A stretch of DNA of 64,000 nucleotides from an uncultured virus (IMG/VR IMGVR_UViG_3300029448_000008) (taxonomy: Duplodnaviria; Heunggongvirae; Uroviricota; Caudoviricetes). The stretch lies in the IMG/VR virus record IMGVR_UViG_3300029448_000008; one strand, 5' to 3'. The notes under the pieces are model-generated. The model was not told where the DNA came from. It searched no databases and was given only the letters and a program-made list of their open reading frames with translations. Shown in pieces: positions 6,026 to 32,786 of this stretch. The stretch's first letter is position 1. Every line of letters starts with the position of its first letter. Made by a program: the position numbers and the translations under genes.

Positions 6026-7462
6026 TTATGATTTAACACACTCTAAATGCAAACAATTAGTAGCTCGTCTTATTGCAATTCCGCACTCTTTCATAAAGTG
6101 TACAGATGCACCGTCTACGTCATTTGCTCTTAGGGAGTTTCCACCATTGAATCCTGGAGGAACACTTGCTCCGGCTACTGCCCATCTAACAAGTTCTCTT
6201 CCTTTTCTAGAAATCATTTGAACGTTTTTCTGACCGTCATAAGATGACATGTCTAAGAAAATCATTCTGTAAGACTCTAGAGGTAGTCCTGACACTGGGT
6301 GTTTTGGACTGTTTAATGCTCTAGCACCGTGATCAAATAAAGGTAAATGTCTTACCGTAATTACGTGACCATCAATGTGCTTGTAAGAAGTAAAGAAACC
6401 TCCGAATTGTAGAGCGTTGCTTCCACCTGACATAAATGCACTAGGATCTGTGTTCTTAATATAAGAACCTGAAGATAGCTCGTCTTTCATAGCTGTATCG
6501 AATTCTTCCATACCACCTAATCCAGTAAATAGAACAATGTTCATGTCTTGAGCATCAGAAGCTCCATATAGAGCGTCTCTTACTACAGACTTGATTTTTG
6601 CTGCTGTTAAACTAGAGTAAGAATCAACATTAGGAATTTGCTCGATAACACCAGCTCCTAGAGGAATTGGTTTATTGTTGTCATCTTTAAGAGCAATGGT
6701 TCCGTCAGAAGATCTGTTGTACTTAGAATACCATAAAGCATATTCTGTTTCTTCTTTCCATCTTAACATGTGTTGATATTCTTCGAAGTCATACCATAGG
6801 TTAGTCTTCTTACCATCAACATTAAATTCGAAATTAACCACTCTGTCAGGCATATTTCCTTCATATCTGTAGGATTTTCTGATTAGAGAGATTTGGTTTC
6901 TCATTTTAGATGGAGCAACCCAGTTACTTTCGTTACCAACTGATCCGGAAATAGCAGTAGGTGCAAATAATTGTACCCATTTTTTGTCTGCTACGTCGCC
7001 AGATGCTACTGAATCAGTAGAATCAGCTGTAACTAATTGTAGTGTGTATACCCAACCGCCATCTGCTTCATATGGATCTTCCATAATTCTAGCTTGGATT
7101 CCTCCTTCACTTTCAATAATGTATTGCTTGATGAACCATTTTTCATCGAACTTAACTTTAAATCTAGTGGAGTTAACTCCGGAACCGCTAACTAGAGCTG
7201 AAGCTCTTACGGTTTTGTTTAATCTACCCATTACTGGATAGTCGTACTCAATGTCATTGATGTAATTTAACGCGCCTACACCCTCTGTTAGAAAAGATAG
7301 AGGAAACCTCTTGTCTTCTTTTCCAGCTAGATGAGTGATTACCGGTGAAAGTACATCAGGCTGAGTAAGGAGAGCGTTCGCTAACGAGTTTTCGTCAGTC
7401 ATACCCTCAGCGTTGAAAATGTCTTCGTATAAACGAAGTTTTTTAGCGTTATCTGCTGCCAT
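6026..7462 (-). CDS. Major capsid protein (crAss-type)
   Basis: 478 aa; TDENSL, FPLSFLTEG, LFTGLGGMEEFD, FGGFFTSYKHIDGHVITVRHLPLFD and DGASVHF motifs; follows portal and scaffold genes. Confidence 0.9.
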   Translation of the reverse strand: MAADNAKKLRLYEDIFNAEGMTDENSLANALLTQPDVLSPVITHLAGKEDKRFPLSFLTEGVGALNYINDIEYDYPVMGRLNKTVRASALVSGSGVNSTRFKVKFDEKWFIKQYIIESEGGIQARIMEDPYEADGGWVYTLQLVTADSTDSVASGDVADKKWVQLFAPTAISGSVGNESNWVAPSKMRNQISLIRKSYRYEGNMPDRVVNFEFNVDGKKTNLWYDFEEYQHMLRWKEETEYALWYSKYNRSSDGTIALKDDNNKPIPLGAGVIEQIPNVDSYSSLTAAKIKSVVRDALYGASDAQDMNIVLFTGLGGMEEFDTAMKDELSSGSYIKNTDPSAFMSGGSNALQFGGFFTSYKHIDGHVITVRHLPLFDHGARALNSPKHPVSGLPLESYRMIFLDMSSYDGQKNVQMISRKGRELVRWAVAGASVPPGFNGGNSLRANDVDGASVHFMKECGIAIRRATNCLHLECVKS

Positions 7463-8655: not shown

Positions 8656-8722
8656 TTAAATTATACTAGTTTCTATCTAAAATATATATGGTACATGTTT
8701 ACCTTTATATATAGTCTTTTTA

Positions 8723-10984
8723 TTATTTTTTAGCTGCTGTTCTTTTTTGAACGGCTATCTTTTTTTCTTCTATATCTTTTTTATTTCTTATTTCTTCTTT
8801 TTTAACTTGTAGCTTTTCTCTTTCAAGTTGTACTTTAGCTAAATCTACTTGATCATTTACTCCATTATCATTCATATCTTGATCGATAGCTTTAGATGCA
8901 ACTTTTAATTGTTCTATTTCCATTTTACTATCTCTGTCTTTTTGATTTTCAGATGCTTCAAATTGTCTAGCTGCTTCTTGAGCTTGAGCTTGTTGTTGTA
9001 ATTGTTGTGTTTGCATCTGTTGAGCTTGTTGTTGTTGAGCTTGTTGTATTTCTTTTTCAAGCTTGTCAACTTCTTGTAATTTTGTTTTAATTTGTGCAAA
9101 ATTATTTCCTTCTAGAATTTCTGCAATAGTAGAAGGCTGACTTCCATTCTGAGCAAATGATAATGTTAATTGTTTTAATGCTTGAAGTTTATCTTGTTCA
9201 ATTGAATTGTTTTTAACAAACACACCAAATTCTGCTTCTTGGAACATTCCTGGATCTACATCTAATATAGCTTCTCTATAATCACTAGTTATATATTGAG
9301 TTTTCTTTCCGTCTTTCCAAGCAACTTTTGATGTATCTAGTAAACCATTAAACTCTCTTTCAGTAAATTTATCAAATCTTCTAAACAATTCTTCAGTCAT
9401 AACAGAAGATTGAAATACAGCTCTTTCTGTTGCTCCAATACCATCAGATGCTTGCACTTGTCCTTTTCTTTGTCTAGATATTCCTACAAGCTCTTCCCAT
9501 TCTTGTTTTACAGATTGTAATAATTGAAATTGTGCAGCTATGTATTGACCTAAGCTCATATCTAATACTTGAAACTGATTAAATGAAACTCGTTCTCCTC
9601 TTTTACCTTCTGCAGTAGAGTCTATAAATGCATAACCCATTGCATCAGCATAATACATAAACTTTTCTTCATCCCATCCATGTCTTTTAGGAATAGTGTT
9701 CATTTCCATCAACATTATCTTATCCTTATTTTTAGCAATAGATAATTCTAATCTATAATGGAATATGTTATACAAGATCTGGTAGGGTACGCCCATGGAA
9801 ACTATGGATATTTGATCCGAGTGTCTATTTGAGTAGATTCTTCCGTTGTAGGGGAGCTTACAAATTGAAAGATTAGACATTTCGTTTCTCTGTACTTGAT
9901 GGGGTCTGATGTTGACATATATATCACCATCTATTCTGTACCCTTCCCAAACCTGATTAACCCAAAAATATTCTACATTTTCGTTAGATTCTTTATCTAC
10001 TTTATATGTTTCGTCAACAACCATACTTTGTTCTTGACCCATATCATCGTAATAAGTTAGGATACCTACACGTGAAAACGATTTCCACGTTACATGTAAA
10101 ACTTCTGCAAATCTTTCTGCATCTGTTTCTGGATAGTTAGGACTAAAAGGAGAAACATGACCAGTAGATGTTTTTTGAGATGGATTTTCTAAACGATCTA
10201 TTTCAGAATCTTTTAGTACATCATAAAAATTATCTACGATAGCATTAACGCTCATCATCTTACGTCTTACACACCAATCACCATCTTCTATAAACTGAAC
10301 GTCTGGTGATTTTTCATAATCTATATCTAGAGGAGATACAACTTCATATTCTACATCATCCATGCAAATATCTTTATATGTATACACTTCACCTGATACT
10401 AACCAATCAAAAAACGCAGTTTGTAAATTATCTGGTAATTCTAACTTATCTATTAAATAGTCTAAAGATTGTTGACCCATTATTGCTCGAATGTCTTTGT
10501 AGTTTCCTACAATTTCTTCTTGCATTTGTTGTAGTTGAGGTAATTCTTTAGAATCCATACCTGTTTCTACTCCCATTTCATTTAGATCATTAACAAACTT
10601 TTGTTCTAAGTATTTTCGTAATTCATCTTTAAGCAATTCATCTTGCATGTTTTTCATATCGGAATTACGTACGACTACTTGATGTGAAAAAGGTCTTTTA
10701 GCTTTTTCTCCTAATAATAAATCTATAACTGGTTTAATTATATTGTAACTACGGAGTTTAGCAGGAAATCCTTTTGTTTTATGTTTTTCAGAGTTATAAG
10801 GATTAATTACATAATTATAATCTGCTTCGGATAGGTTACCGTTATAAGCATCATAGAATTTATGCATATGAGATTTATGTTGACTAGAAAACTGAGTTCT
10901 GTCAATATATGCATTCATTGAATTTTTCCCCCAATCTTTAGTTTTCCGACTACGAGGAATCTTTTGCTTCGGAATTCTACTCAT
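8723..10984 (-). CDS. Portal protein
   Basis: 753 aa after the terminase; IPKQKIP..K..W start, YNIIKPVIDLLLGE, WVNQVWEGYRI, GISRQRKGQ motifs and a C-terminal Q-rich coiled coil typical of crAss portals. Confidence 0.9.
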   Translation of the reverse strand: MSRIPKQKIPRSRKTKDWGKNSMNAYIDRTQFSSQHKSHMHKFYDAYNGNLSEADYNYVINPYNSEKHKTKGFPAKLRSYNIIKPVIDLLLGEKAKRPFSHQVVVRNSDMKNMQDELLKDELRKYLEQKFVNDLNEMGVETGMDSKELPQLQQMQEEIVGNYKDIRAIMGQQSLDYLIDKLELPDNLQTAFFDWLVSGEVYTYKDICMDDVEYEVVSPLDIDYEKSPDVQFIEDGDWCVRRKMMSVNAIVDNFYDVLKDSEIDRLENPSQKTSTGHVSPFSPNYPETDAERFAEVLHVTWKSFSRVGILTYYDDMGQEQSMVVDETYKVDKESNENVEYFWVNQVWEGYRIDGDIYVNIRPHQVQRNEMSNLSICKLPYNGRIYSNRHSDQISIVSMGVPYQILYNIFHYRLELSIAKNKDKIMLMEMNTIPKRHGWDEEKFMYYADAMGYAFIDSTAEGKRGERVSFNQFQVLDMSLGQYIAAQFQLLQSVKQEWEELVGISRQRKGQVQASDGIGATERAVFQSSVMTEELFRRFDKFTEREFNGLLDTSKVAWKDGKKTQYITSDYREAILDVDPGMFQEAEFGVFVKNNSIEQDKLQALKQLTLSFAQNGSQPSTIAEILEGNNFAQIKTKLQEVDKLEKEIQQAQQQQAQQMQTQQLQQQAQAQEAARQFEASENQKDRDSKMEIEQLKVASKAIDQDMNDNGVNDQVDLAKVQLEREKLQVKKEEIRNKKDIEEKKIAVQKRTAAKK

Positions 10985-10993
10985 AGCTACAAA

Positions 10994-12952
10994 TTACTGA
11001 AAAAATCTTCTATTAAAAAACGAATTATCAGATTCTTCATAATTAGCTTCTATCTCCTTATTATAGAGATCTTTCATATGAAACATTCCTACAAGAAGAG
11101 CAGAAACACGGTCAAAATTGCCTTTTGTGTTGTATTTTATTAATTCATCTATTAAAGCAATGTCATAAATATAATGTAAATTTAGTTTTCTGTCACCATC
11201 TTCTTGTGTTCCTCTTGGTGTTCTTAACCAGTCACGTAAATATATTTCTGCCTGATTCTTTCTATGACTAGATCCCATAGATGTACCATAAGTTCTATTT
11301 AATCTACGTATACGCACACCATCTGTTTTATCAAACAATTCTGCTTCTGGTAATAAATAATTTAAAAGTCTATGTCTTTTAGCATAAGGTATTACTTCAC
11401 CTCTGTCATTTTCAAATCCTATTTGTGCATTATAATATTTAGCTAGTAAAAATAAATTATAATTGTACTCATCTTGAGTTTCAGGTCTACCAACATATGA
11501 TGCTACGATCATATCATCAGGTTTAGAAAAATTATTTATTCTTTTTATAACATAAGCAGCTCCTAATGAAGCACCATAACCATCACTTGCATAAGGGTCA
11601 TGTACTATAAAATATAAATCGTCTGGTATTTTTTCTTGTTTAAATGAGGGTGCTTGATACATGATTATACATCCACGTACATCATCTGATTTATTATGAG
11701 GAAATTTTAAAACAGGTCTTACTTTATCACTAGGTTTAAATTGTATACCTGTTGATGTTTCTACTAATATCCCATTAACTGCCATTTTTTTATCTAATCC
11801 TGTTCTCATTAATTCATTACGCCATGATACTAATGCAGCTCCAGGAAACATATTACCTCTTTGTTGTAAAAACGCTTCTCTAGGCATCCAAGGATATTCT
11901 GTTATATATTTATCTAAAGTACTTGCATCTTTAGCTTCTTTTTTTAGTTGATCTCTTTTAGCATCTTCTTCTTTTTTTGCTTGATCTCCTAAAGAGTTAC
12001 CATCTTTGTCCATGTAACCTATTTTATTTTGAAATGACGGAAAGAAAAAACCACAAGTAGATCCTGTAGATCCTTCATCCCATATATTATCAAATGGATA
12101 TAGATCGTAAGCTTCTGGATTATAAAACATAGATTCAAAGTCAATTGTTCCTCCTTCCATGTCACCACCAGTACCAAACAAAACTATTTGACCAGTAACA
12201 ATACCACCATCTTCAACACAAGGACGTGTTGCTAAATACGATGCTTTTAAATTATCGAATGCACCACACTCTTCAAATATAACTAGTGATGCATCTTTAC
12301 CTCTTGCAGCATCTGGGTTATCTTTAAAAGTAATAGCTTCTACTTCTGATTTATATCCTTTTTCAATTGCTTGTTTATTAATATATTGTAGATAACTAGC
12401 TCTTTTATGATTAATTTTATCAACAACCTGTCTTCTTTTCTGCCAGCCTGTGTGTTCATTAAGAAAATTCATGTAATCAGTTACCATTGTCATAATTCCT
12501 TTTGGATATAGGTATTTTTTATCATGAGCACATAGTAAAGTGTAAGAATTTCGTCTAGTATTAAACAAATTAGCAGCTATGGCAGCATTTTTGTAACTAA
12601 ATCCTTTACGCCTAGCTTTTGCTACAATTAAATGTTTGCCTTGTTCTGCAGATTTTTCTAATGCATGAAAGTATTCGTAGTCACCGTCCCAAAAGTTAGG
12701 AAAGGACACTGTTTTAAGACCGGCTTTACGTTCTTCAGTAGCTTCGGTTAGTTTAATTCTACAAAAATTTAGATAAAAGTAATGATGTCCTGTAATTCTG
12801 GTGTCTCCTACAATGTATCCTTCTGTACATCGTCTTAATTGCTCTGACCAGTACTCATAGTAAGGTGCACTTCCTACAGCATCTCCACAATATACTCCCT
12901 CTTTTATAAATTTTGTAGCTGTTTCGCTAAAAGCCCTTGTGTTTACTAGCAT
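10994..12952 (-). CDS. terL: Terminase large subunit
   Basis: ITGHHYFYLNF, Walker A KARRKGFSY, Walker B IFEECG, FGTGG, nuclease HDPY and NFDRVSAL motifs. Confidence 0.95.
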   Translation of the reverse strand: MLVNTRAFSETATKFIKEGVYCGDAVGSAPYYEYWSEQLRRCTEGYIVGDTRITGHHYFYLNFCRIKLTEATEERKAGLKTVSFPNFWDGDYEYFHALEKSAEQGKHLIVAKARRKGFSYKNAAIAANLFNTRRNSYTLLCAHDKKYLYPKGIMTMVTDYMNFLNEHTGWQKRRQVVDKINHKRASYLQYINKQAIEKGYKSEVEAITFKDNPDAARGKDASLVIFEECGAFDNLKASYLATRPCVEDGGIVTGQIVLFGTGGDMEGGTIDFESMFYNPEAYDLYPFDNIWDEGSTGSTCGFFFPSFQNKIGYMDKDGNSLGDQAKKEEDAKRDQLKKEAKDASTLDKYITEYPWMPREAFLQQRGNMFPGAALVSWRNELMRTGLDKKMAVNGILVETSTGIQFKPSDKVRPVLKFPHNKSDDVRGCIIMYQAPSFKQEKIPDDLYFIVHDPYASDGYGASLGAAYVIKRINNFSKPDDMIVASYVGRPETQDEYNYNLFLLAKYYNAQIGFENDRGEVIPYAKRHRLLNYLLPEAELFDKTDGVRIRRLNRTYGTSMGSSHRKNQAEIYLRDWLRTPRGTQEDGDRKLNLHYIYDIALIDELIKYNTKGNFDRVSALLVGMFHMKDLYNKEIEANYEESDNSFFNRRFFQ

Positions 12953-12953
12953 A

Positions 12954-13343
12954 TTATTTTTCTAATCTCTCTGAACGAGTATAATCTTTTTTAACTACTT
13001 CTACTTGACCGTCTTTATTTACTCTAGATATAACTAAATAAAAACTTTGACCATTCTCATATTGATGGTGACAATATGCTTTTAATCCTTTTAGATCGTT
13101 TTCTTTTTCTATTGTTCCACTAAAGTTTTTACCCTCATCGTTTTCATATACAAAATGTGCGGCTCCATATGGTACAAACTCCCCTCCTGTTTCGTTATTA
13201 TTATAATCTACATGAGTAGTACGTCCGCATTGCGGACAAAATTTTTCAAATTCTACCCCATCAGCTTTTATCTCTGTGATTCTTAATTTATGACCACAGA
13301 CACATTTTAACTTAGAGTTTGTATTAAATTTTATCTTTGCCAT
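12954..13343 (-). CDS. Zn-ribbon hypothetical protein
   Basis: CVCG...CPQCG cysteine pairs. Confidence 0.55.
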   Translation of the reverse strand: MAKIKFNTNSKLKCVCGHKLRITEIKADGVEFEKFCPQCGRTTHVDYNNNETGGEFVPYGAAHFVYENDEGKNFSGTIEKENDLKGLKAYCHHQYENGQSFYLVISRVNKDGQVEVVKKDYTRSERLEK

Positions 13344-13915
13344 TAGTCTTCAAACATTCCTTTAGTTCCACCACCACGAATTTGTGCTTCATTTGCTTGT
13401 TCTTTCTTAACTTTTTCTTCTAATGAGTTTATTGTATCTATAGCTTTTGGTATTTCTGATGATACTTGCAATAGTTTAGTTACATCTTTCATTATAGATC
13501 CAACATCTCTATCTTCATCACTATCAACAAGTTCTAAAGATGTAGATATCTGTTCATTAAGAGCATCAATAACTTTTGCGGATGTAAGTAACCCTTCTTT
13601 AATTGCTTTTAAATTAGTTATGGCAGGAGTACGCTGCAACTCATTGTACTTATCCATCCCATCGAGTACGAATTGGGTGATTGGACATTTATCGTCAATG
13701 TGTAAGTCTTTGAGCAATCTTTGTTTTCTTTCTCCTTCTGGGTATATAGAATAGGGAGATCTGTAGTCGCACATGAAGTAAATGTAGGATAAGTGCTTGT
13801 ACGCGTTTCGTTTTTTTCTGTCTTTGTCATTAGTTATAATTTTTTTAAACTCCGGTATTAGTTTAGCTTCCGGATTTATTACTACTTGAAAATTGTCTTC
13901 TTTGAAAAGCTTCAT
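13343..13915 (-). CDS. Conserved crAss-like protein upstream of terminase (possible terminase small subunit)
   Basis: YIYFMCDYRSPY motif, helical C-terminus ending IRGGGTKGMFED; position near terL. Confidence 0.5.
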   Translation of the reverse strand: MKLFKEDNFQVVINPEAKLIPEFKKIITNDKDRKKRNAYKHLSYIYFMCDYRSPYSIYPEGERKQRLLKDLHIDDKCPITQFVLDGMDKYNELQRTPAITNLKAIKEGLLTSAKVIDALNEQISTSLELVDSDEDRDVGSIMKDVTKLLQVSSEIPKAIDTINSLEEKVKKEQANEAQIRGGGTKGMFED

Positions 13916-14164: not shown

Positions 14165-14560
14165 TTACTCGTTTACTTTGAAAGTTTTCTTTTTACCTCC
14201 TTCATAGTAATAAGCATGTCCTTCCTGTATCAATGTCTCATTAATACTCATTTTTGTCTCATCTTTATCCATAATATGAATTTCTCCAAGCACTCTACCA
14301 TATTTTCCTGTCCCATGAGACACAAGCCTAAAATACTTAGGTTTGTTAGAAACTTTTGTTAATAGTTCTTTATTTCTTGCTTTAGCTGCTAATCCTTTTT
14401 TCTTTTCGTCTAGATTTCTAGTTCTACTTTCCCATGTATCTATTCCTTTATATCTAATTCTTCTTTTAACCCATGTATCAAAGCCAAGATCAATCATTGC
14501 ATCAATAGTATCACCATCAACAACTCTTAATAACTTACCTCTGTATATATATTTATCCAT
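14165..14560 (-). CDS. Thermonuclease (SNase-like)
   Basis: RVVDGDTID, RIRYKGIDTWE, GKYGRVLGEI and INETLIQEGHA motifs. Confidence 0.9.
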   Translation of the reverse strand: MDKYIYRGKLLRVVDGDTIDAMIDLGFDTWVKRRIRYKGIDTWESRTRNLDEKKKGLAAKARNKELLTKVSNKPKYFRLVSHGTGKYGRVLGEIHIMDKDETKMSINETLIQEGHAYYYEGGKKKTFKVNE

Positions 14561-14821: not shown

Positions 14822-15011
14822 AAAAATCTATATAATCTTGTGGATTCATCCACATTCTTACAGTATAAGTATCTTCTTCTTCTATTTCTGCAAGTATATC
14901 ATGTTCAAATTGCATTCCTTTTATAACAAACTGTTTATTTTGGAAATTTAAAAACTCAAACACATTTTCTAATCCAACAATACGTACATCAATGAAATAA
15001 TCATAACCCAT
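14805..15011 (-). CDS. Hypothetical protein
   Basis: ORF in a tightly overlapping gene string; likely start MGYDYF at 15011. Confidence 0.5.
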   Translation of the reverse strand: MGYDYFIDVRIVGLENVFEFLNFQNKQFVIKGMQFEHDILAEIEEEDTYTVRMWMNPQDYIDFYGSKT

Positions 15012-15342
15012 CTGTGGTTTTAAATTCAAAAGTTAAAACTTTATTTGCTTTATAATTATAAACTAATGGATGAAACGTGTAACGTATTTTTTTATTAGGA
15101 TCATATAGCAAGACATTTTTATCTTTTAAACTTTTAATAGAATTATTTAAAACTGCTCTGCTCCATTTAAGTTGTTTAGCAGCTTCTAGTCTATTATCTT
15201 TAGAACAAGGATTATCTATATCTAATTTAAGAAATACCTCACAAACTTTAATTTCGGTTTGTGTTAGTTTTAATATTCCGTTTATAGTGTTTAAATAATC
15301 TCTAAGGAACCTATCTTTATAAGTTGGTATTTGTACTTTCAT
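15001..15342 (-). CDS. Winged-helix DNA-binding protein
   Basis: LTQTEIKV...RLEAAKQLKWSRAVLNNSIKSLKDKNVL is a MarR/wHTH-like pattern. Confidence 0.65.
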   Translation of the reverse strand: MKVQIPTYKDRFLRDYLNTINGILKLTQTEIKVCEVFLKLDIDNPCSKDNRLEAAKQLKWSRAVLNNSIKSLKDKNVLLYDPNKKIRYTFHPLVYNYKANKVLTFEFKTTDGL

Positions 15343-15616
15343 TATACTTAATTACTTTTTCTATTTTTCTAGAGAGTCTTTTTGCAACCAACTGTCTTAC
15401 ATTCTTTAATAACAGTATGATGCATTGGTTCTCTGCACTAAAATTCTTTTTTTGTAAGCTATAAAATCTATCTATAAGAATATTTATAACTTCTTCATTG
15501 GTAGTTCCGTCTTGAAACTTACCATCCTTTTTTTCGGTAAACTTGATAGTTTGAGATTTTGTATTGTCTGCGAAGTCTGTCGCTTTATACTCTACTCCTG
15601 ATTTTACTACATCCAT
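15317..15616 (-). CDS. Tad1/Acb2-like helical-hairpin protein (candidate anti-defence sponge)
   Basis: GTTNEEVINILIDR...LQKKNFSAENQCII..L...KR aligns by eye with the Tad1-family pattern G..NE.L.....R...FQ...F...EN..A...L...KR. Confidence 0.6.
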   Translation of the reverse strand: MDVVKSGVEYKATDFADNTKSQTIKFTEKKDGKFQDGTTNEEVINILIDRFYSLQKKNFSAENQCIILLLKNVRQLVAKRLSRKIEKVIKYNESTNTNL

Positions 15617-15720
15617 TATTTATTGATTTAATAATTCTTTATTGTATTCTACCCTAAATGTATGGTAAAATAGTATGAAATAAAAGAACTATAAATCTAT
15701 AAGACTATTATAGAGACTTT

Positions 15721-15996
15721 TTACGCAGGATGTCCTTTATATTTTCTTATAAAGTTACCGTCTGTGTTTTTCATTACACTAATGTAGAACTCGGGATCGA
15801 GTTCAAAAATTTTCTGTGCCATTTGCACCCATTTCTTTTGAACTTGTTCTTTAGTCCCAAGATCTAACGGTGTGTTAGTTCCTAAGTTAGCACAGTAGGT
15901 AGCATTCATTTCTAGAATACCGTCTATTTTTTTTCGTACCCTTTTATTGGTGTAATACTTCGATCTTATCCTCATTCTTTTTATTTCCTTTTTCAT
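15721..15996 (-). CDS. Hypothetical protein
   Basis: Open frame; SKYYTNKRVRKKID...NA...NLG...W...LDPEFY pattern; the true start may be MRIRSKYY. Confidence 0.55.
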   Translation of the reverse strand: MKKEIKRMRIRSKYYTNKRVRKKIDGILEMNATYCANLGTNTPLDLGTKEQVQKKWVQMAQKIFELDPEFYISVMKNTDGNFIRKYKGHPA

Positions 15997-16108: not shown

Positions 16109-16523
16109 AATATATGTATTAATTATATGTAAATATACAAAGTCTCTATAAAAAATACAAAAAAAATTTTTTGCATACTTATGTAAATAAGATTTTTATT
16201 TGTATCATTGATGCTCTAGTCGCAAATCTAGTTAAGTTGCTACACTTCAGATACACCAACTGTTGGATCGGGCAAATTAAGACATCTGAGAAAAGCGATA
16301 TTATCCTTTGTACCTTTCGAGCACCCAAATATCATACTTACTCACGTGCATTTTTCTAAAATTTAAAGGTTCTGGGGGGTGCTAAAGCAAAAAAAGCGCC
16401 CTTATACATAAAGTATCTAAAGGTGTCGATGTATAGACCACCTATTGTAAACCTCCCCCGCTAAACATTGCGGTGTAACTACCCCCGCTAATAAGTGGTA
16501 GTCTAATTAAAAATCGTAATACA
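16109..16523. promoter_or_regulatory. Divergent control region between late (minus) and early (plus) blocks
   Basis: The coding strand switches here; about 400 bp lack a credible gene; GC-rich hairpins and a CCCCCGCTAA direct repeat at 16455 and 16482. Confidence 0.6.
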
Positions 16524-18702: not shown

Positions 18703-18780
18703 TGCGTGTCCGCTATGTTTTCATGACAGTTAGAGATGATTAAGCCTGGCACGGGGCTTTTTCTTAAATTTTATATAATT

Positions 18781-19554
18781 ATGGACAAAATACATTTACG
18801 AGGCTTTAGTATTGCCTTGTTAGCATGCATAATGTGTGCTATCCACGCTTACTCACAAAAGAGTCAGCAAGAAAATACTACAATACAAAATACATTTGAA
18901 ATACCAGAAGGATATGAAAGAGTAGAAGATAGATATGCAGATTTCTTTCGTAACTTTCCTATATTAGTTGAAGAAGGAAGATATCATGATGGCAAGACAT
19001 TACCTGGATTAGGTATAACATATGCTGCTATATTTGACTATGCTATAGGCAGAAGAAACTTACATCAATGTGCTGATGCATCAATTTACATGAGAACTAA
19101 ATACATGTTAGACTCAGGTAGAGAGATAAATGATATAAGATGGCATTACACTGATGGATCATGGTTAAGCTATGGTTCTTTTCTTTCTAAAAGAAGAGCA
19201 AAACCTGGTAAAACAAGTTTTTTAGCTTATATGGAAAACATATGGACTTATGCTGGTACATGGTCAATACAAGAATATGAAACGGAATCTGTTAAAATTA
19301 AAGATGCGAGACCAGGAGATATCTTCGTTGAAGGTGGCTTTCCTGGACATGCTGTGACTATTGTTGATATGGTAGAGAATGATGAGGGTAAGAAATTATA
19401 TATGCTTGCCCAATCATTCATGCCTGCACAGTCACATCACATATTACTTGATATAAATGATTCAGTATGGTTTGACTTTGATAGAAATAAAGAAGTTGTA
19501 GCTACACCTGGATGGGTATTTAGTAAAAGAAGCGTTAAACGATTCAATAATTAA
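18781..19554 (+). CDS. DUF4846-family exported protein (papain/NlpC-P60-like Cys-His)
   Basis: Signal peptide after MDKIHLRG; LHQCADA, YAGTWS, PGDIFVEGGFPGHAVTIVDM and LAQSFMPAQ motifs. Confidence 0.8.
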   Translation: MDKIHLRGFSIALLACIMCAIHAYSQKSQQENTTIQNTFEIPEGYERVEDRYADFFRNFPILVEEGRYHDGKTLPGLGITYAAIFDYAIGRRNLHQCADASIYMRTKYMLDSGREINDIRWHYTDGSWLSYGSFLSKRRAKPGKTSFLAYMENIWTYAGTWSIQEYETESVKIKDARPGDIFVEGGFPGHAVTIVDMVENDEGKKLYMLAQSFMPAQSHHILLDINDSVWFDFDRNKEVVATPGWVFSKRSVKRFNN

Positions 19555-29287: not shown

Positions 29288-31645
29288 ATGAAATTAGTAA
29301 GTAATGCAGATATACAACATGTTGGTACTATAAATAAAAGTATTGACTTTGGTATAGATAAAGAGAATATAGGTGTACTATTTAGAGGATTTTCAGATAC
29401 TCTATATTCTAATAAAATAGGATCTATTGTACGTGAGTTAACATCTAATTGTTTTGACTCTCATAGAGAAGCTAAAGTAAAAGATGATGTAGTAATCATA
29501 TTACAAAGTGCAGATCCTTTGTCAGGTAAAACTGGTAAGATATGTTTTAAGGATGTAGGTATAGGTCTGAGTCCTAAACGTATTGAAGATATTTATTCTA
29601 AATATTTTTCTTCTACCAAGAGAGAAACTAATAATGAAATTGGTGGTTTTGGTATTGGAGCAAAGAGTCCTCTAGCTTATACTGATGTATTTGAAGTTAA
29701 TACTATATATGATGGTATAGCTTATAATTATATAGTGCACAGAGGTGAGCAAGTTCCTATGATTAAATTAATATCTAAGACAGCTACCGACGAGCATAAT
29801 GGTACATCTGTTATATTACCTGTAAAAGCAGGAGATGAGAAAAAGTTTATCTCAGAGTGCAAACACCAGCTTAGATTCTTTGATAATATTACATATAAGA
29901 ATATGAATATTAACAATAATTATAAAGTTTATAAAGGTAAGCACTGGATTGCTTCTCTTCACGGAGAACGAGAGAATGTTGATTATAGACTGTCTATATG
30001 TCTTGGTGGTGTTAGTTATCCTTTAGATTCTAATCAAGTAGAATTTGATTCGTATTTTTCAGAATATAATACTACTTCAGTAGCGCTTAATTTTGACATA
30101 GGAGAGATAGATGTTACTATGTCTCGTGAGAACATAGAGTATAATGATAGAACTATAGAAGCTATAAAGAAAAAGTATAAATTAGTTTCTGAAGAGCTTT
30201 GTAGTATGTATGATAAGTCTTGGGCTAAAGTTACTGACTTTAGAGAGTATTTTATTAATACAGGAAAACAAAATAGTTATACTGTTAAACTTCCTATTAA
30301 TGATAATTTTATAGACATGTCATTTTGCAAGAAAGATGCAGGACAAGTTACTTTTTCTCCTTGGAATATTCATGTAGATCATAAAATGGTAGATTTAATT
30401 CTTAAGACTTATGTAGTGCATAACGGCAAAAGAGATATGAAAAAGTATGATAACTATGCTACTAGATTGTTGAAGAATTATAATCCAGAAGAGTGCTGGT
30501 TTAGAAAACGTGGTAAATTAAGCATGTTGAAAAGTAATTATATACAAGATGAGTGGATTCCTGAAAATACAGATCTGGATTACACTGATAAATTTGTTTG
30601 TGTAGAATTACAAGATGAACCAGATTGGAGTAGTTATGTATGGAATGAGAAAGACCAAGAGAATTATAAAATAATAAAACCTCTTCTTCTTAAATATATC
30701 ATAGATAAATGTGCAGGTAAATATGATGACATAGAAGTTCCTGATTCTTATAAACCGGTATCTAATAGTGTAACTAAAACTAAAGTGCCTAGAACACAGG
30801 TTTGTGCTAGATACACTAGATATAACGGAGAATATAACAGACATGATCCTACTGATGTAGTTTTTTCTAAGCAAAATTATATGTATGAGGGTATACAAAG
30901 CCTTATTAATCAAGGTCATACCATTGTATATGGTAATATGGAAGAAGAAGAAACTTTACGTCAAATAGCATTTGTTACAACTGCTCTTCCTGAATGGAGA
31001 TCTACTAAACAGTATGATGTTATGCATCAAGATCGTATTCATATTCATAAGATTGCTAATAGTCATATAAAACACTATAAAACATTAGGAGCTTTAACTC
31101 CTAAAGAATTTATAGTAAAACACTATAACCAGCTTATGGGTATTTCTATGTGTGAGTTATTAGGTAGTATGTATAGGAATAATCAAAAGTTATTTGATCC
31201 TATATATGGTGTGTTTCCTGAAAACATGACTTCTATGATGGATCATTGTATGTTATATATGGATACATATAGAGTTTATGGTGAAGAACCCAAATGGAAA
31301 GACTGGCATAAGAGAAGTTCTAGTGCTTATAATTCTACAGAAGTCGATGGTAATCATGTTAAAAATTTGAAGAAGTTATGTGAACAATTTAGTATACCAT
31401 ATAACACAGAAAATCATGTTTTACATTTTGGATTCCATTCACTCCATACAGCTAGTTTCTATAAACTCTTTCAAGAGATAGTAGAAGAGCTTGGATGGAT
31501 TGATAAGTATTTTGACGTTACTACAAAGAGTATTAACGAAGAATATGTCTTAAGTGACAAAGCGTTAGGTATTATTAAAGAAATATCTAGCAGAAATTAT
31601 AGTAAATTAATGTATAAAATCAATAATTATTTTAAAAATGAGTAA
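29288..31645 (+). CDS. rIIA: rIIA-like protein (N-terminal GHKL ATPase)
   Basis: LYSNKIGSIVRELTSNCFDSH, DVGIGLS, STKRETNNEIGGFGIGAKSP, NGTSV and SRENIEY motifs; followed by rIIB. Confidence 0.85.
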   Translation: MKLVSNADIQHVGTINKSIDFGIDKENIGVLFRGFSDTLYSNKIGSIVRELTSNCFDSHREAKVKDDVVIILQSADPLSGKTGKICFKDVGIGLSPKRIEDIYSKYFSSTKRETNNEIGGFGIGAKSPLAYTDVFEVNTIYDGIAYNYIVHRGEQVPMIKLISKTATDEHNGTSVILPVKAGDEKKFISECKHQLRFFDNITYKNMNINNNYKVYKGKHWIASLHGERENVDYRLSICLGGVSYPLDSNQVEFDSYFSEYNTTSVALNFDIGEIDVTMSRENIEYNDRTIEAIKKKYKLVSEELCSMYDKSWAKVTDFREYFINTGKQNSYTVKLPINDNFIDMSFCKKDAGQVTFSPWNIHVDHKMVDLILKTYVVHNGKRDMKKYDNYATRLLKNYNPEECWFRKRGKLSMLKSNYIQDEWIPENTDLDYTDKFVCVELQDEPDWSSYVWNEKDQENYKIIKPLLLKYIIDKCAGKYDDIEVPDSYKPVSNSVTKTKVPRTQVCARYTRYNGEYNRHDPTDVVFSKQNYMYEGIQSLINQGHTIVYGNMEEEETLRQIAFVTTALPEWRSTKQYDVMHQDRIHIHKIANSHIKHYKTLGALTPKEFIVKHYNQLMGISMCELLGSMYRNNQKLFDPIYGVFPENMTSMMDHCMLYMDTYRVYGEEPKWKDWHKRSSSAYNSTEVDGNHVKNLKKLCEQFSIPYNTENHVLHFGFHSLHTASFYKLFQEIVEELGWIDKYFDVTTKSINEEYVLSDKALGIIKEISSRNYSKLMYKINNYFKNE

Positions 31646-32786
31646 AAATCAAGTATTTGCAATTCGTAGTAACAAAGCTGTTACTGCGCTAGTTAACGGT
31701 GTCAGCTATTATAAAAATGAAGCTGACAAAACAAGTGCGCAATCTCTATATGAGAAAATTAAAACTGTAGCACTAAATCCTACTGATGGTCTCGTAAACC
31801 AGCTAGTAGAAGACTTTGACCCAACCCAGAAAGTGTTTGATTCACAGAGTTTGGTTAGAGATGAATTAGGTAATTGGTATTTAAAGGGGTTCACTGAGCC
31901 CCTACCAACTAAACTACTTACAAAGATGAAAGAGTTTATAGACAAAGGATTGCCTTTGACTCCTCTTGTTAATTTCTGGAAGTTGTTGATGTTGAATCCT
32001 GCAGACCATGTTAAGAAAGATCTATATAGTTTTATGGATCAGTATGAGTTTCCTATTACAGACTCTGGTTATTTTATAGCCTATAAATCTGTAAAGAAAA
32101 CTGAGAAAACATATAAAGCAGTAAATATGTGGGTACCAAAGGAGTATATACAATTAAAAGCATCTGGTAAGGATCCAAAAGATTACACAGTTGTAGATAA
32201 GAAAGGTGATTTCTCTATTGTAGAGACCAGTCTTATTACAGACAACAGCGGTAAGTTTATTGCTCCGGATCATGTTGCTGGTAATCTACAAGAAATGTTT
32301 GATTCTATAAACAATCTTACAGATGAAACTGTAGAAGCTCCAGAGTTTACCGACTGGCATGGTGGTAGTACACAGATTAGACTAGGTTCTCCTGTTACAA
32401 TGGATAGATCTCAATGTGATGGAGATCCTAGAAATACCTGTTCTACTGGTTTGCATGTTGGTGCTCCAGGATACGTCAAAGGATTTGGCGGATTTGGCGG
32501 AGGTGGAGGTAACGTTTACCTTGCAACTCTAGTTAATCCTATGAACGTAGTAGCAGTTCCCTCTGATTATTCTTATATGAAGATGAGATGCTGTGAATAC
32601 TATGCATATGGTATTGTAGATTTGACTAATGATGTAACTATTACTACGCCATACTTTGAGTATGACTATAAAACGTGGGAAACAGAGACATTAGAAGAAC
32701 AATTGGCAGAATTCCAAGGTTCTAGAAGTCAAGAAGCTGCAGAGAAAGCAAACATTATGAGAGAAAGACTTGTAATGGTGGCATAA
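31638..32786 (+). CDS. rIIB: rIIB-like protein
   Basis: PLVNFWKLLMLNP, ITDSGYFIAYKSV, CSTGLHVG and VNPMNVVAVPSDY..KMRCCEY motifs. Confidence 0.88.
   Translation: MSKNQVFAIRSNKAVTALVNGVSYYKNEADKTSAQSLYEKIKTVALNPTDGLVNQLVEDFDPTQKVFDSQSLVRDELGNWYLKGFTEPLPTKLLTKMKEFIDKGLPLTPLVNFWKLLMLNPADHVKKDLYSFMDQYEFPITDSGYFIAYKSVKKTEKTYKAVNMWVPKEYIQLKASGKDPKDYTVVDKKGDFSIVETSLITDNSGKFIAPDHVAGNLQEMFDSINNLTDETVEAPEFTDWHGGSTQIRLGSPVTMDRSQCDGDPRNTCSTGLHVGAPGYVKGFGGFGGGGGNVYLATLVNPMNVVAVPSDYSYMKMRCCEYYAYGIVDLTNDVTITTPYFEYDYKTWETETLEEQLAEFQGSRSQEAAEKANIMRERLVMVA

Follow-up and report, generated by a model that had tools for sequence, protein, structure and literature searches.

The 64,000-nucleotide stretch of the uncultured virus record IMGVR_UViG_3300029448_000008 (IMG/VR; Caudoviricetes), hereafter called the window, encodes at 15317..15616 on the minus strand a protein of 99 amino acids (aa) that belongs to the Tad1 family. 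The favoured interpretation, to which a probability of about 0.55 is given, is that of a Tad1-type sponge for an immune signal, with ligand pockets at the dimer interface, in which the cyclic-trinucleotide site of the family would have been lost and whose signal would lie outside those assayed to date with its closest characterized relative. The assignment to Tad1 is not new: a 2025 preprint (PMC12393519) includes the very same sequence among the Tad1 homologs of its Table S1 (rows 2531 and 2532). New beyond this catalogue are the kept dimer pocket, the lost trinucleotide site, the changed C-terminal lid, a predicted homodimer, the core status of the gene in a clade of crAss-like phages, its coupling to a gene for a winged-helix protein of 113 aa (g113) and a relative integrated in the genome of a member of the Flavobacteriaceae.

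Family assignment and reality of the gene

Membership in the Tad1 family is based on sequence matches, on fold matches and on the presence of the identical sequence in the published homolog table. A single-sequence phmmer search against all PDB chains retrieves five distinct sequences, all Tad1 (E 0.002-0.003). Two family profiles were used, one from 23 close homologs and a wide one from 128 diverse relatives. The first gives six PDB matches, again all Tad1 (E 0.012-0.075), and the second finds Tad1 chains at E 4e-13 to 7e-12. The Pfam family PF24729 (Acb2/Tad1 hairpin) is matched individually by 14 of the 128 relatives. The AlphaFold2 (AF2) model, computed on these relatives, has a mean predicted local distance difference test (pLDDT) value of 96.6 and displays the architecture of the Tad1 fold, with an N-terminal antiparallel β sheet (strands 2-5, 9-13, 21-26, 28-30 and 33-35) followed by a C-terminal two-helix hairpin (helices 40-57 and 61-97). 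Among the matches listed in a Foldseek search of the PDB, ranks 1-16 are all CbTad1 or CmTad1 (probability 1.00; template modelling score TMq 0.55-0.66), eight of these rows at E<=1e-3, and the next match is unrelated (E 1.0). Thus, the kinship proposed in an earlier reading made from the sequence alone (hereafter the sequence-only reading) is borne out, including by the structural search that it had suggested, here run on the AF2 model.

Other searches of the 99-aa protein are less telling. PHROGs returns only families of unknown function (phrog_2428, E 1.9e-4), tblastn against 50,697 phage records gives no match, and the Pfam match to ACP53EA (E 0.058) was rejected as due to chance. A search of BFVD with the model yields nothing at E<=1e-3; its best rows include an ‘Acb2/Tad1 hairpin domain-containing protein’ and the usual mis-annotation of Tad1, ‘ABC transporter ATPase’. 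In a separate observation, the last 36 residues of PDB chain 8y6v_I (‘gp184’, 230 aa) are matched by the wide family profile (E 5.8e-4), a hint that a hairpin of the Acb2/Tad1 type is fused there to the rest of a larger phage protein.

Entry into the published catalogue relies on an HHpred probability above 0.9 against 7UAW (PMC12393519). In the Tad1 sheet of its Table S1, 69 rows contain the motif ‘SAENQ’, 350 contain ‘GTTNEE’ and 12 share a stretch of 20 residues with the query. The founding Tad1 preprint reports 799 homologs, all from phages or prophages, with listed host phyla that include Proteobacteria, Firmicutes and Cyanobacteria (10.1101/2022.05.03.490397). No mention of crAss-like phages or Bacteroidota was found in the text of these two preprints, and no published account of Tad1 in crAss-like phages was found in the titles and abstracts searched.

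The peptide strings quoted in the sequence-only reading (IKF..., DGTTNEEVINILIDRFYSLQKKNFSAENQCIILLLKNVRQLVAKR) are present in the translation of the minus-strand open reading frame (ORF). The NE/R/Q/F/EN/KR skeleton given there is approximately right: the residues are present, except that the F of FQ corresponds to L54; EN is preceded by one residue fewer, and two spacings differ by one or two residues from those given. The segments described as lacking, KLEEA..W and the GVEGT tail, are indeed absent, by substitution rather than by deletion; helix 2 is modelled as continuous from 61 to 97, the equivalent of KLEEA..W reads IILLLKNVRQL and the C-terminal tail reads KVIKYNEST.

That the ORF is a real gene is supported by its homologs (22 close ones at 52-97% identity in a word-indexed search; 431 cluster representatives at E<=1e-3 in an exhaustive profile search, 63 of these at E<=1e-10), by the confident model and by the low ratio of non-synonymous to synonymous substitution rates (dN/dS). 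Pairwise values against nine orthologs are 0.037-0.122, a tenth pair being saturated, and purifying selection on the gene is strong. Its shortness, the AT-rich genome and the want of a direct Pfam or NCBIfam match might have suggested a chance ORF or a decaying remnant; the probability of this is negligible in view of the 431 family representatives, the pLDDT value, the dN/dS range and the conserved synteny, and this candidate was rejected.

Ligand pocket and oligomeric state

In CbTad1, residues F82, N92, R109 and R113, together with the C-terminal lid (residues 116-122), form the pocket for glycocyclic ADP-ribose (gcADPR) and cyclic dinucleotides at the dimer interface, and R90 and T97 (R88 and T95 in CmTad1) constitute the cyclic-trinucleotide site, through which the hexamer, a trimer of dimers, is also held in place; further hexamer contacts in CmTad1 are K96, Q98, E99, M102, W103 and K106 (10.1101/2023.11.15.567273). 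The CbTad1 numbering was verified on the printed CbTad1 sequence and the counterparts were taken from the PDB sequence alignments. In these alignments, the four dimer-pocket residues correspond to L54, N63, R80 and K84, of which the last three are, at the sequence level, kept or conservatively replaced. Conservation among the 128 relatives is high at these positions (N63 in 119, R80 in 121, K or R at 84 in 116), and at position 54, L is found in 113 of them and F in only 4. The Arg/Thr pair of the trinucleotide site is replaced by Ala61 and Leu68, two positions that vary across the relatives, and the six further hexamer contacts align with L69, K71, N72, Q75, L76 and K79; as judged from the alignment, the residue test for the trinucleotide site and hexamer is negative. 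The test for the lid is negative as well: the family motif VEGT is replaced by KYxE in a tail that reads KVIKYNESTNTNL and that AF2 models as an extension of helix 2. Y91 and E93 of this lid region are invariant in all 23 close homologs. Two further invariant residues, K71 and R74, lie in helix 2.

A homodimer, at least, is predicted. Two-copy complex predictions give values of 0.81, 0.83 and 0.81 for the interaction prediction score from aligned errors (ipSAE), and the best of three controls gives 0.00; contacts agree between runs to at least 96%, with a partner pLDDT of 85 or higher. The ipSAE mark used is reached by 20/30 solved same-chain pairs and by 1/23 solved single chains, counts that apply only roughly because an alignment of our own was used. 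The predicted interface includes residues 10, 50-54, 62-63 and 79-80, so it contains N63 and R80, with K84 outside the confidently modelled contacts. The prediction shows likeness to Tad1, not binding.

From these features, a mechanism may be proposed. The pockets at the dimer interface would sequester a phosphate-bearing, nucleotide-derived immune signal of the host, so that the host effector would never be switched on. N63, R80 and K84 would act there as the counterparts of the CbTad1 residues that bind gcADPR and cyclic dinucleotides. Cyclic trinucleotides would not be bound, because the Arg/Thr pair has become Ala61/Leu68, and the KYxE lid in place of VEGT may point to a different ligand preference.

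Gene order and core status

The large terminase (TerL) of the window matches 151 deposited phage records, all below 60% identity; the best matches are the Flavobacterium psychrophilum phages Fpv20 and FpV21 (39%), with Bacteroides crAss-like phages and crAssphage next. A megablast search with 12 kb of the window against the 50,697 deposited phage records gives no match. This kinship of TerL, combined with the lack of a near DNA match, identifies the window as part of an uncultured crAss-like phage. It also encodes a DNA polymerase, a helicase, rIIA/rIIB homologs and an ORF of 4861 aa, at a guanine plus cytosine content of 31-35%.

The Tad1-like gene stands near the head of a leftward operon that runs into TerL. 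In 80 IMG/VR loci obtained via the Tad1-like protein, with counts limited to the sequence covered per locus, the array order is Tad1-like gene, g113, variable slot, HU-like gene, g190 (for a conserved 190-aa protein) and TerL; g113 is found in 75 loci, the HU-like gene and g190 in 76 each and TerL in 78. To guard against ascertainment bias, a separate set of 80 loci was collected via TerL (63-98% identity), of which 45 have at least 2.7 kb upstream. All 45 carry the Tad1-like gene, 1.5-2.8 kb upstream of TerL. In the 12 kb around TerL of the Flavobacterium phage Fpv20, a cultured relative, a hidden Markov model search does not detect it (best E 0.11). Since it is present in 45/45 of the TerL-ascertained loci and undetected at Fpv20 TerL, the Tad1-like gene is a core gene only of this crAss-like clade, which is assigned to marine Bacteroidota. 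At a TerL identity of 67-68%, the values are 56-58% for the Tad1-like protein and 39-48% for its array neighbours.

Weighing the interpretations

Only one member of the subclade, Tad1 #55 (103 aa), has published functional data (PMC12393519). Listed in Table S2 of that preprint, it has the same sequence as the proteins encoded at L038:373-684 and at L041, two of our loci; its gene lies in the same array, upstream of a TerL 68% identical to that of the window. It shares 58% identity with the 99-aa protein (55/95 residues, no gaps), and all pocket-equivalent positions are identical between the two. Table S2 covers 18 test proteins labelled Tad1 and two controls, and gives for each defence system the outcome of transformation, collapse in liquid culture and plaque validation. 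Including the controls, 15/20 of these rows have at least one validated inhibition (13/18 for the non-control rows); the rows without are #47, 51, 52, 54 and 55. Across the whole study, 19/84 sponges inhibited nothing, for which its authors suggest untested CBASS (cyclic oligonucleotide-based antiphage signalling system) variants or undiscovered signals.

Several points weigh against the reading as a sponge. According to Table S2, Tad1 #55 was transformed into all seven defence strains (Thoeris types I, II and IV, CBASS of Yersinia and of E. albertii, and Pycsar of E. coli and of Bacillus) and no plaque-validated inhibition was recorded. Its sole signal is a culture collapse with the E. coli Pycsar, which failed plaque validation; the six other systems are entered without collapse and with validation as N/A (PMC12393519). 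The 99-aa protein itself reaches no Pfam or NCBIfam model, PF24729 included at E<=1. The aromatic F82 of CbTad1 is Leu54 here, and most hexamer-interface residues and the lid motif are not kept. The leucine alone is not disqualifying, since the Tad1 of Opitutaceae sp. TAV5, reported to be anti-Thoeris (10.1101/2022.05.03.490397), also has Leu at this position. As Tad1 oligomers have already been solved, the successful dimer prediction may reflect memory of the model. A fixed position and presence in 45/45 loci resemble a core gene more than a typical accessory anti-defence gene. Finally, the genome of a Zeaxanthinibacter lysogen carrying a relative of the phage has no TIR_2 or SMODS match, although a single genome is not informative in this respect.

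Part of this evidence may be read as a sign that the Tad1 fold was recruited to a core, non-immune function of the phage, e.g. the binding of a nucleotide or of a partner protein in the course of early regulation or DNA packaging, with the conserved Asn, Arg and Lys being structural or serving another ligand. Such a function would agree with the 45/45 TerL-ascertained loci, the fixed gene array of the 80 loci, the rank of the protein as the best conserved of the array after TerL (~57% versus 39-48% for neighbours), the dN/dS of 0.04-0.12 and the failure of #55 to inhibit any of seven systems. This main rival is nevertheless considered unlikely: all characterized members of the fold are signal sponges, conservation falls on the positions that contact the ligand in CbTad1, and the gene, undetected around TerL of Fpv20, is not universal to crAss-like phages. 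Moreover, a small-molecule target cannot co-evolve, and therefore purifying selection and core status would be expected of a sponge too. Alternatively, the protein would be an ordinary Tad1 that binds a known signal (e.g. 3'cADPR or a common cyclic dinucleotide), the negative assays being put down to a protein poorly produced or folded in B. subtilis or E. coli, or to differences of an ortholog only 58% identical. The kept pocket residues (N, R and K/R), the Leu shared with the anti-Thoeris Opitutaceae Tad1 (alignment by eye) and the 13/18 active non-control rows speak in its favour. This explanation is more doubtful still, because a difference in specificity from #55 is not expected when all pocket-equivalent residues are identical; in addition, #55 was transformed into all seven strains and the lid motif is unlike that of the inhibiting Tad1 rows compared (PMC12393519).

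A Tad1-type sponge for a signal outside those assayed thus remains the preferred reading. The sequence-only reading had suggested a different signal molecule, an idea that fits both the trinucleotide residues not being kept and a 58%-identical ortholog without validated inhibition of seven systems. If Tad1 #55 is representative, the ligand would not be any of 3'cADPR, His-ADPR, N7-cADPR, 3'3'-cGAMP, 3'3'-cUA, cCMP and cUMP. It is tentatively proposed, with less confidence than is given to the preferred reading, that the protein is an orphan sponge, a Tad1 derivative that has become core in a widespread marine crAss-like lineage and would sequester an immune signal of Flavobacteriia beyond the reach of the seven assayed systems. 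The signal could be made by a TIR protein or by a CD-NTase (c-di-GMP, for instance), or could belong to an undescribed defence system. The authors of the catalogue regard orphan sponges as handles for finding new immune signals (PMC12393519). The core status and the winged-helix gene coupled to it help to decide which orphan sponge to pursue, and in which hosts; were the orphan-sponge proposal true, the protein used as bait could reveal the signal.

The winged-helix partner and upstream elements

g113 starts within the 3' end of the Tad1-like gene, the two having 26 nt in common, and an overlap, mostly of the same length, is found in 75/75 loci with a detected g113 (of 80). The AF2 model of g113 (pLDDT 85.7) has the layout H-H-H-H-b-b of a winged helix. 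Its best Foldseek matches, MexR, MarR and BpsR, are all weak (E>=4.6e-3), NCBIfam gives matches below threshold to a Sta1/Lrs14 helix-turn-helix (HTH) regulator, and a sequence search against the PDB finds nothing significant. Anti-CRISPR-associated (Aca) proteins repress the promoters of anti-CRISPR genes. By analogy, g113 is a possible Aca-like regulator of the gene pair, whose promoter it may repress.

Upstream of the Tad1-like gene lie a near-consensus -7 box and a perfect inverted repeat (Table 1). The -7 promoter consensus of Bacteroidota is TAnnTTTG. Exact copies at -70..-20 occur in 24 of 58 distinct ortholog upstream regions, compared with 2.2 on average and 6 at most in shuffles, a comparison that does not amount to a probability because the upstream sequences are related. 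A motif related to that surrounding the inverted repeat is present in 19 of the same 58 regions (shuffle mean 0.1), and the repeat is a candidate operator or phage promoter element. A scan for sigma-70 promoters was uninformative (22 sites versus 20.2 expected).

The motif AAAAGTCTCTATA matches the window 23 times against 10.7 expected. Intergenic copies, exact or with one mismatch, are found at 15709-15721(-), 16138-16150(+) and 8708-8720(-), and the motif may represent a phage-specific class of promoter or operator. Two of these three copies face outward from a divergent region of 415 bp without ORFs (16109-16523), ~500 bp beyond the Tad1-like gene. This region contains no Rfam family beyond a chance match (fold z-score -1.06) and no att-like match to the tRNA-Met junction of the Zeaxanthinibacter prophage, and no integrase was found among its nine small neighbouring genes.

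Host and further features of the window

A 56%-identical copy of the Tad1-like protein is encoded on a 1.6-Mb contig of Zeaxanthinibacter sp. PT1 (locus L082, 2674-6294), where its gene, the first phage gene at the junction, stands 250 bp after a tRNA-Met and is followed by the same array. A capsid gene lies ~8 kb further (73% identity) and a polymerase gene ~73 kb away (46%). From these matches, the element appears to be an integrated crAss-like relative of at least 74 kb in a genome of the Flavobacteriaceae. To our knowledge, integrated crAss-like phages in cultured hosts have seldom been described. Adaptation to Bacteroidota immunity had been named as one possibility in the sequence-only reading, and a host from this phylum agrees with the kinship of TerL to crAss-like, Bacteroides and Flavobacterium phages and with this prophage. 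Among 151 sampled genomes of the host family, 46 have a TIR_2 match, 18 a SMODS match and 5 a prok_STING match; signalling defences exist in the family, which is context only and establishes no link to the Tad1-like gene. A further copy (54% identity), on a 1455-bp contig labelled as a gammaproteobacterial metagenome-assembled genome, more likely stems from a mis-binned phage fragment than from a phage of a gammaproteobacterial host.

Between g113 and the HU-like gene, the variable slot of the window holds a staphylococcal-nuclease-like (SNase) gene. The slot acts as an accessory hot spot, since SNase is present in L003-L005, L012 and L013 and absent from L001, L002 and L006-L011. The HU/IHF-like and 190-aa genes stand directly upstream of TerL in nearly all relatives, and their products are candidate packaging accessory proteins. 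Giant ORFs of crAss-like phages, such as the one of 4861 aa, are presumably virion-packaged RNA polymerases.

Table 1. Coordinates of the features discussed (window positions unless another genome is named)
Feature	Position	Strand	Basis or remark
Tad1-family gene	15317..15616	minus	ATG-to-stop ORF, 99 aa; Tad1-only PDB matches, AF2/Foldseek, dN/dS
g113, 113 aa, MarR-like winged HTH	15001..15342	minus	AF2, Foldseek, NCBIfam
Near-consensus Bacteroidota-type -7 box TACATTTA	15655..15662	minus	39-46 nt upstream of start codon, one mismatch
Perfect 7-bp inverted repeat TCTATAA-N5-TTATAGA	15695..15713		within conserved AAAAGT..TATA motif
SNase-like gene	14165-14560	minus	Pfam SNase E 5e-9; phrog_452 endonuclease E 3e-36
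HU/IHF-like protein, 84 aa	13863-14117	minus	Pfam Bac_DNA_binding E 8.5e-4
g190, conserved 190-aa protein	13343-13915	minus	ends in IRGGGTKGMFED
Large terminase (TerL)	10994-12952		
Portal	8723-10984		
Major head protein	6026-7462		
272-aa protein, early/replication arm	18736-19554	plus	strong DUF4846 match, E 8e-50
Adjacent rIIA-like (785 aa) and rIIB-like (382 aa) genes	29288-32786	plus	
Single ORF of 4861 aa	36534-51119	minus	
Zeaxanthinibacter sp. PT1 phage genes	G001:C1:915623-917047 and 980138-981946		

Comparison with known systems

Acb2 (anti-CBASS 2, T4 Vs.4 family) has a C-terminal hairpin domain in common with Tad1, the two being joined in PF24729, and is likewise described as a homo-oligomeric sponge. 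Acb2 is all-helical and has no N-terminal β sheet. No Acb2 chain is among the PDB sequence matches of the wide profile (E<=1) or the Foldseek rows listed, and this result, with the five-stranded N-terminal sheet of the model, speaks against membership of the 99-aa protein in Acb2.

In its layout, the pair formed by the Tad1-like gene and g113 would resemble acr-aca operons, in which an anti-CRISPR gene precedes that of its HTH autorepressor: a small gene of anti-defence type is followed by an overlapping small HTH gene, with an inverted repeat in the promoter region. A difference lies in g113, whose fold is that of a MarR-like winged helix and for which homology to the known Aca families is not detectable.

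The closest structural comparison is with CbTad1 (PDB 7UAV, 7UAW, 8SMD and 8KBE-H) and CmTad1 (8KBB-D), which share with the 99-aa protein the sheet and the two-helix hairpin (TM 0.55-0.66), a detectable sequence homology with counterparts of N92, R109 and R113, the homodimer (predicted here) and the phage origin. Differences concern the N-terminus, shorter by ~25 residues (the alignment starts at query residue 21 versus 47-48 in CbTad1), the replacement of F82, R90/T97 and the Trp of LMW by Leu54, Ala61/Leu68 and Leu76, and the lid (VEGT or VLGT versus KYxE). A further difference is that Table S2 records no inhibition of type I Thoeris or of two CBASS systems by the ortholog #55. Another relative is the compact ‘GTTNEE’ clade of Tad1, exemplified by the Opitutaceae sp. 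TAV5 homolog of 104 aa (Table S1, PMC12393519). Compared by eye, it shares with the window's protein the short N-terminus, the pattern M..G..Y.L.NF...Q.I.F.EK...DGTTNEE and the Leu at the F82 position, but keeps CREN...IT, LMW and NVEGK where the subclade of the window has SAEN...LL, RQL and KYNE.

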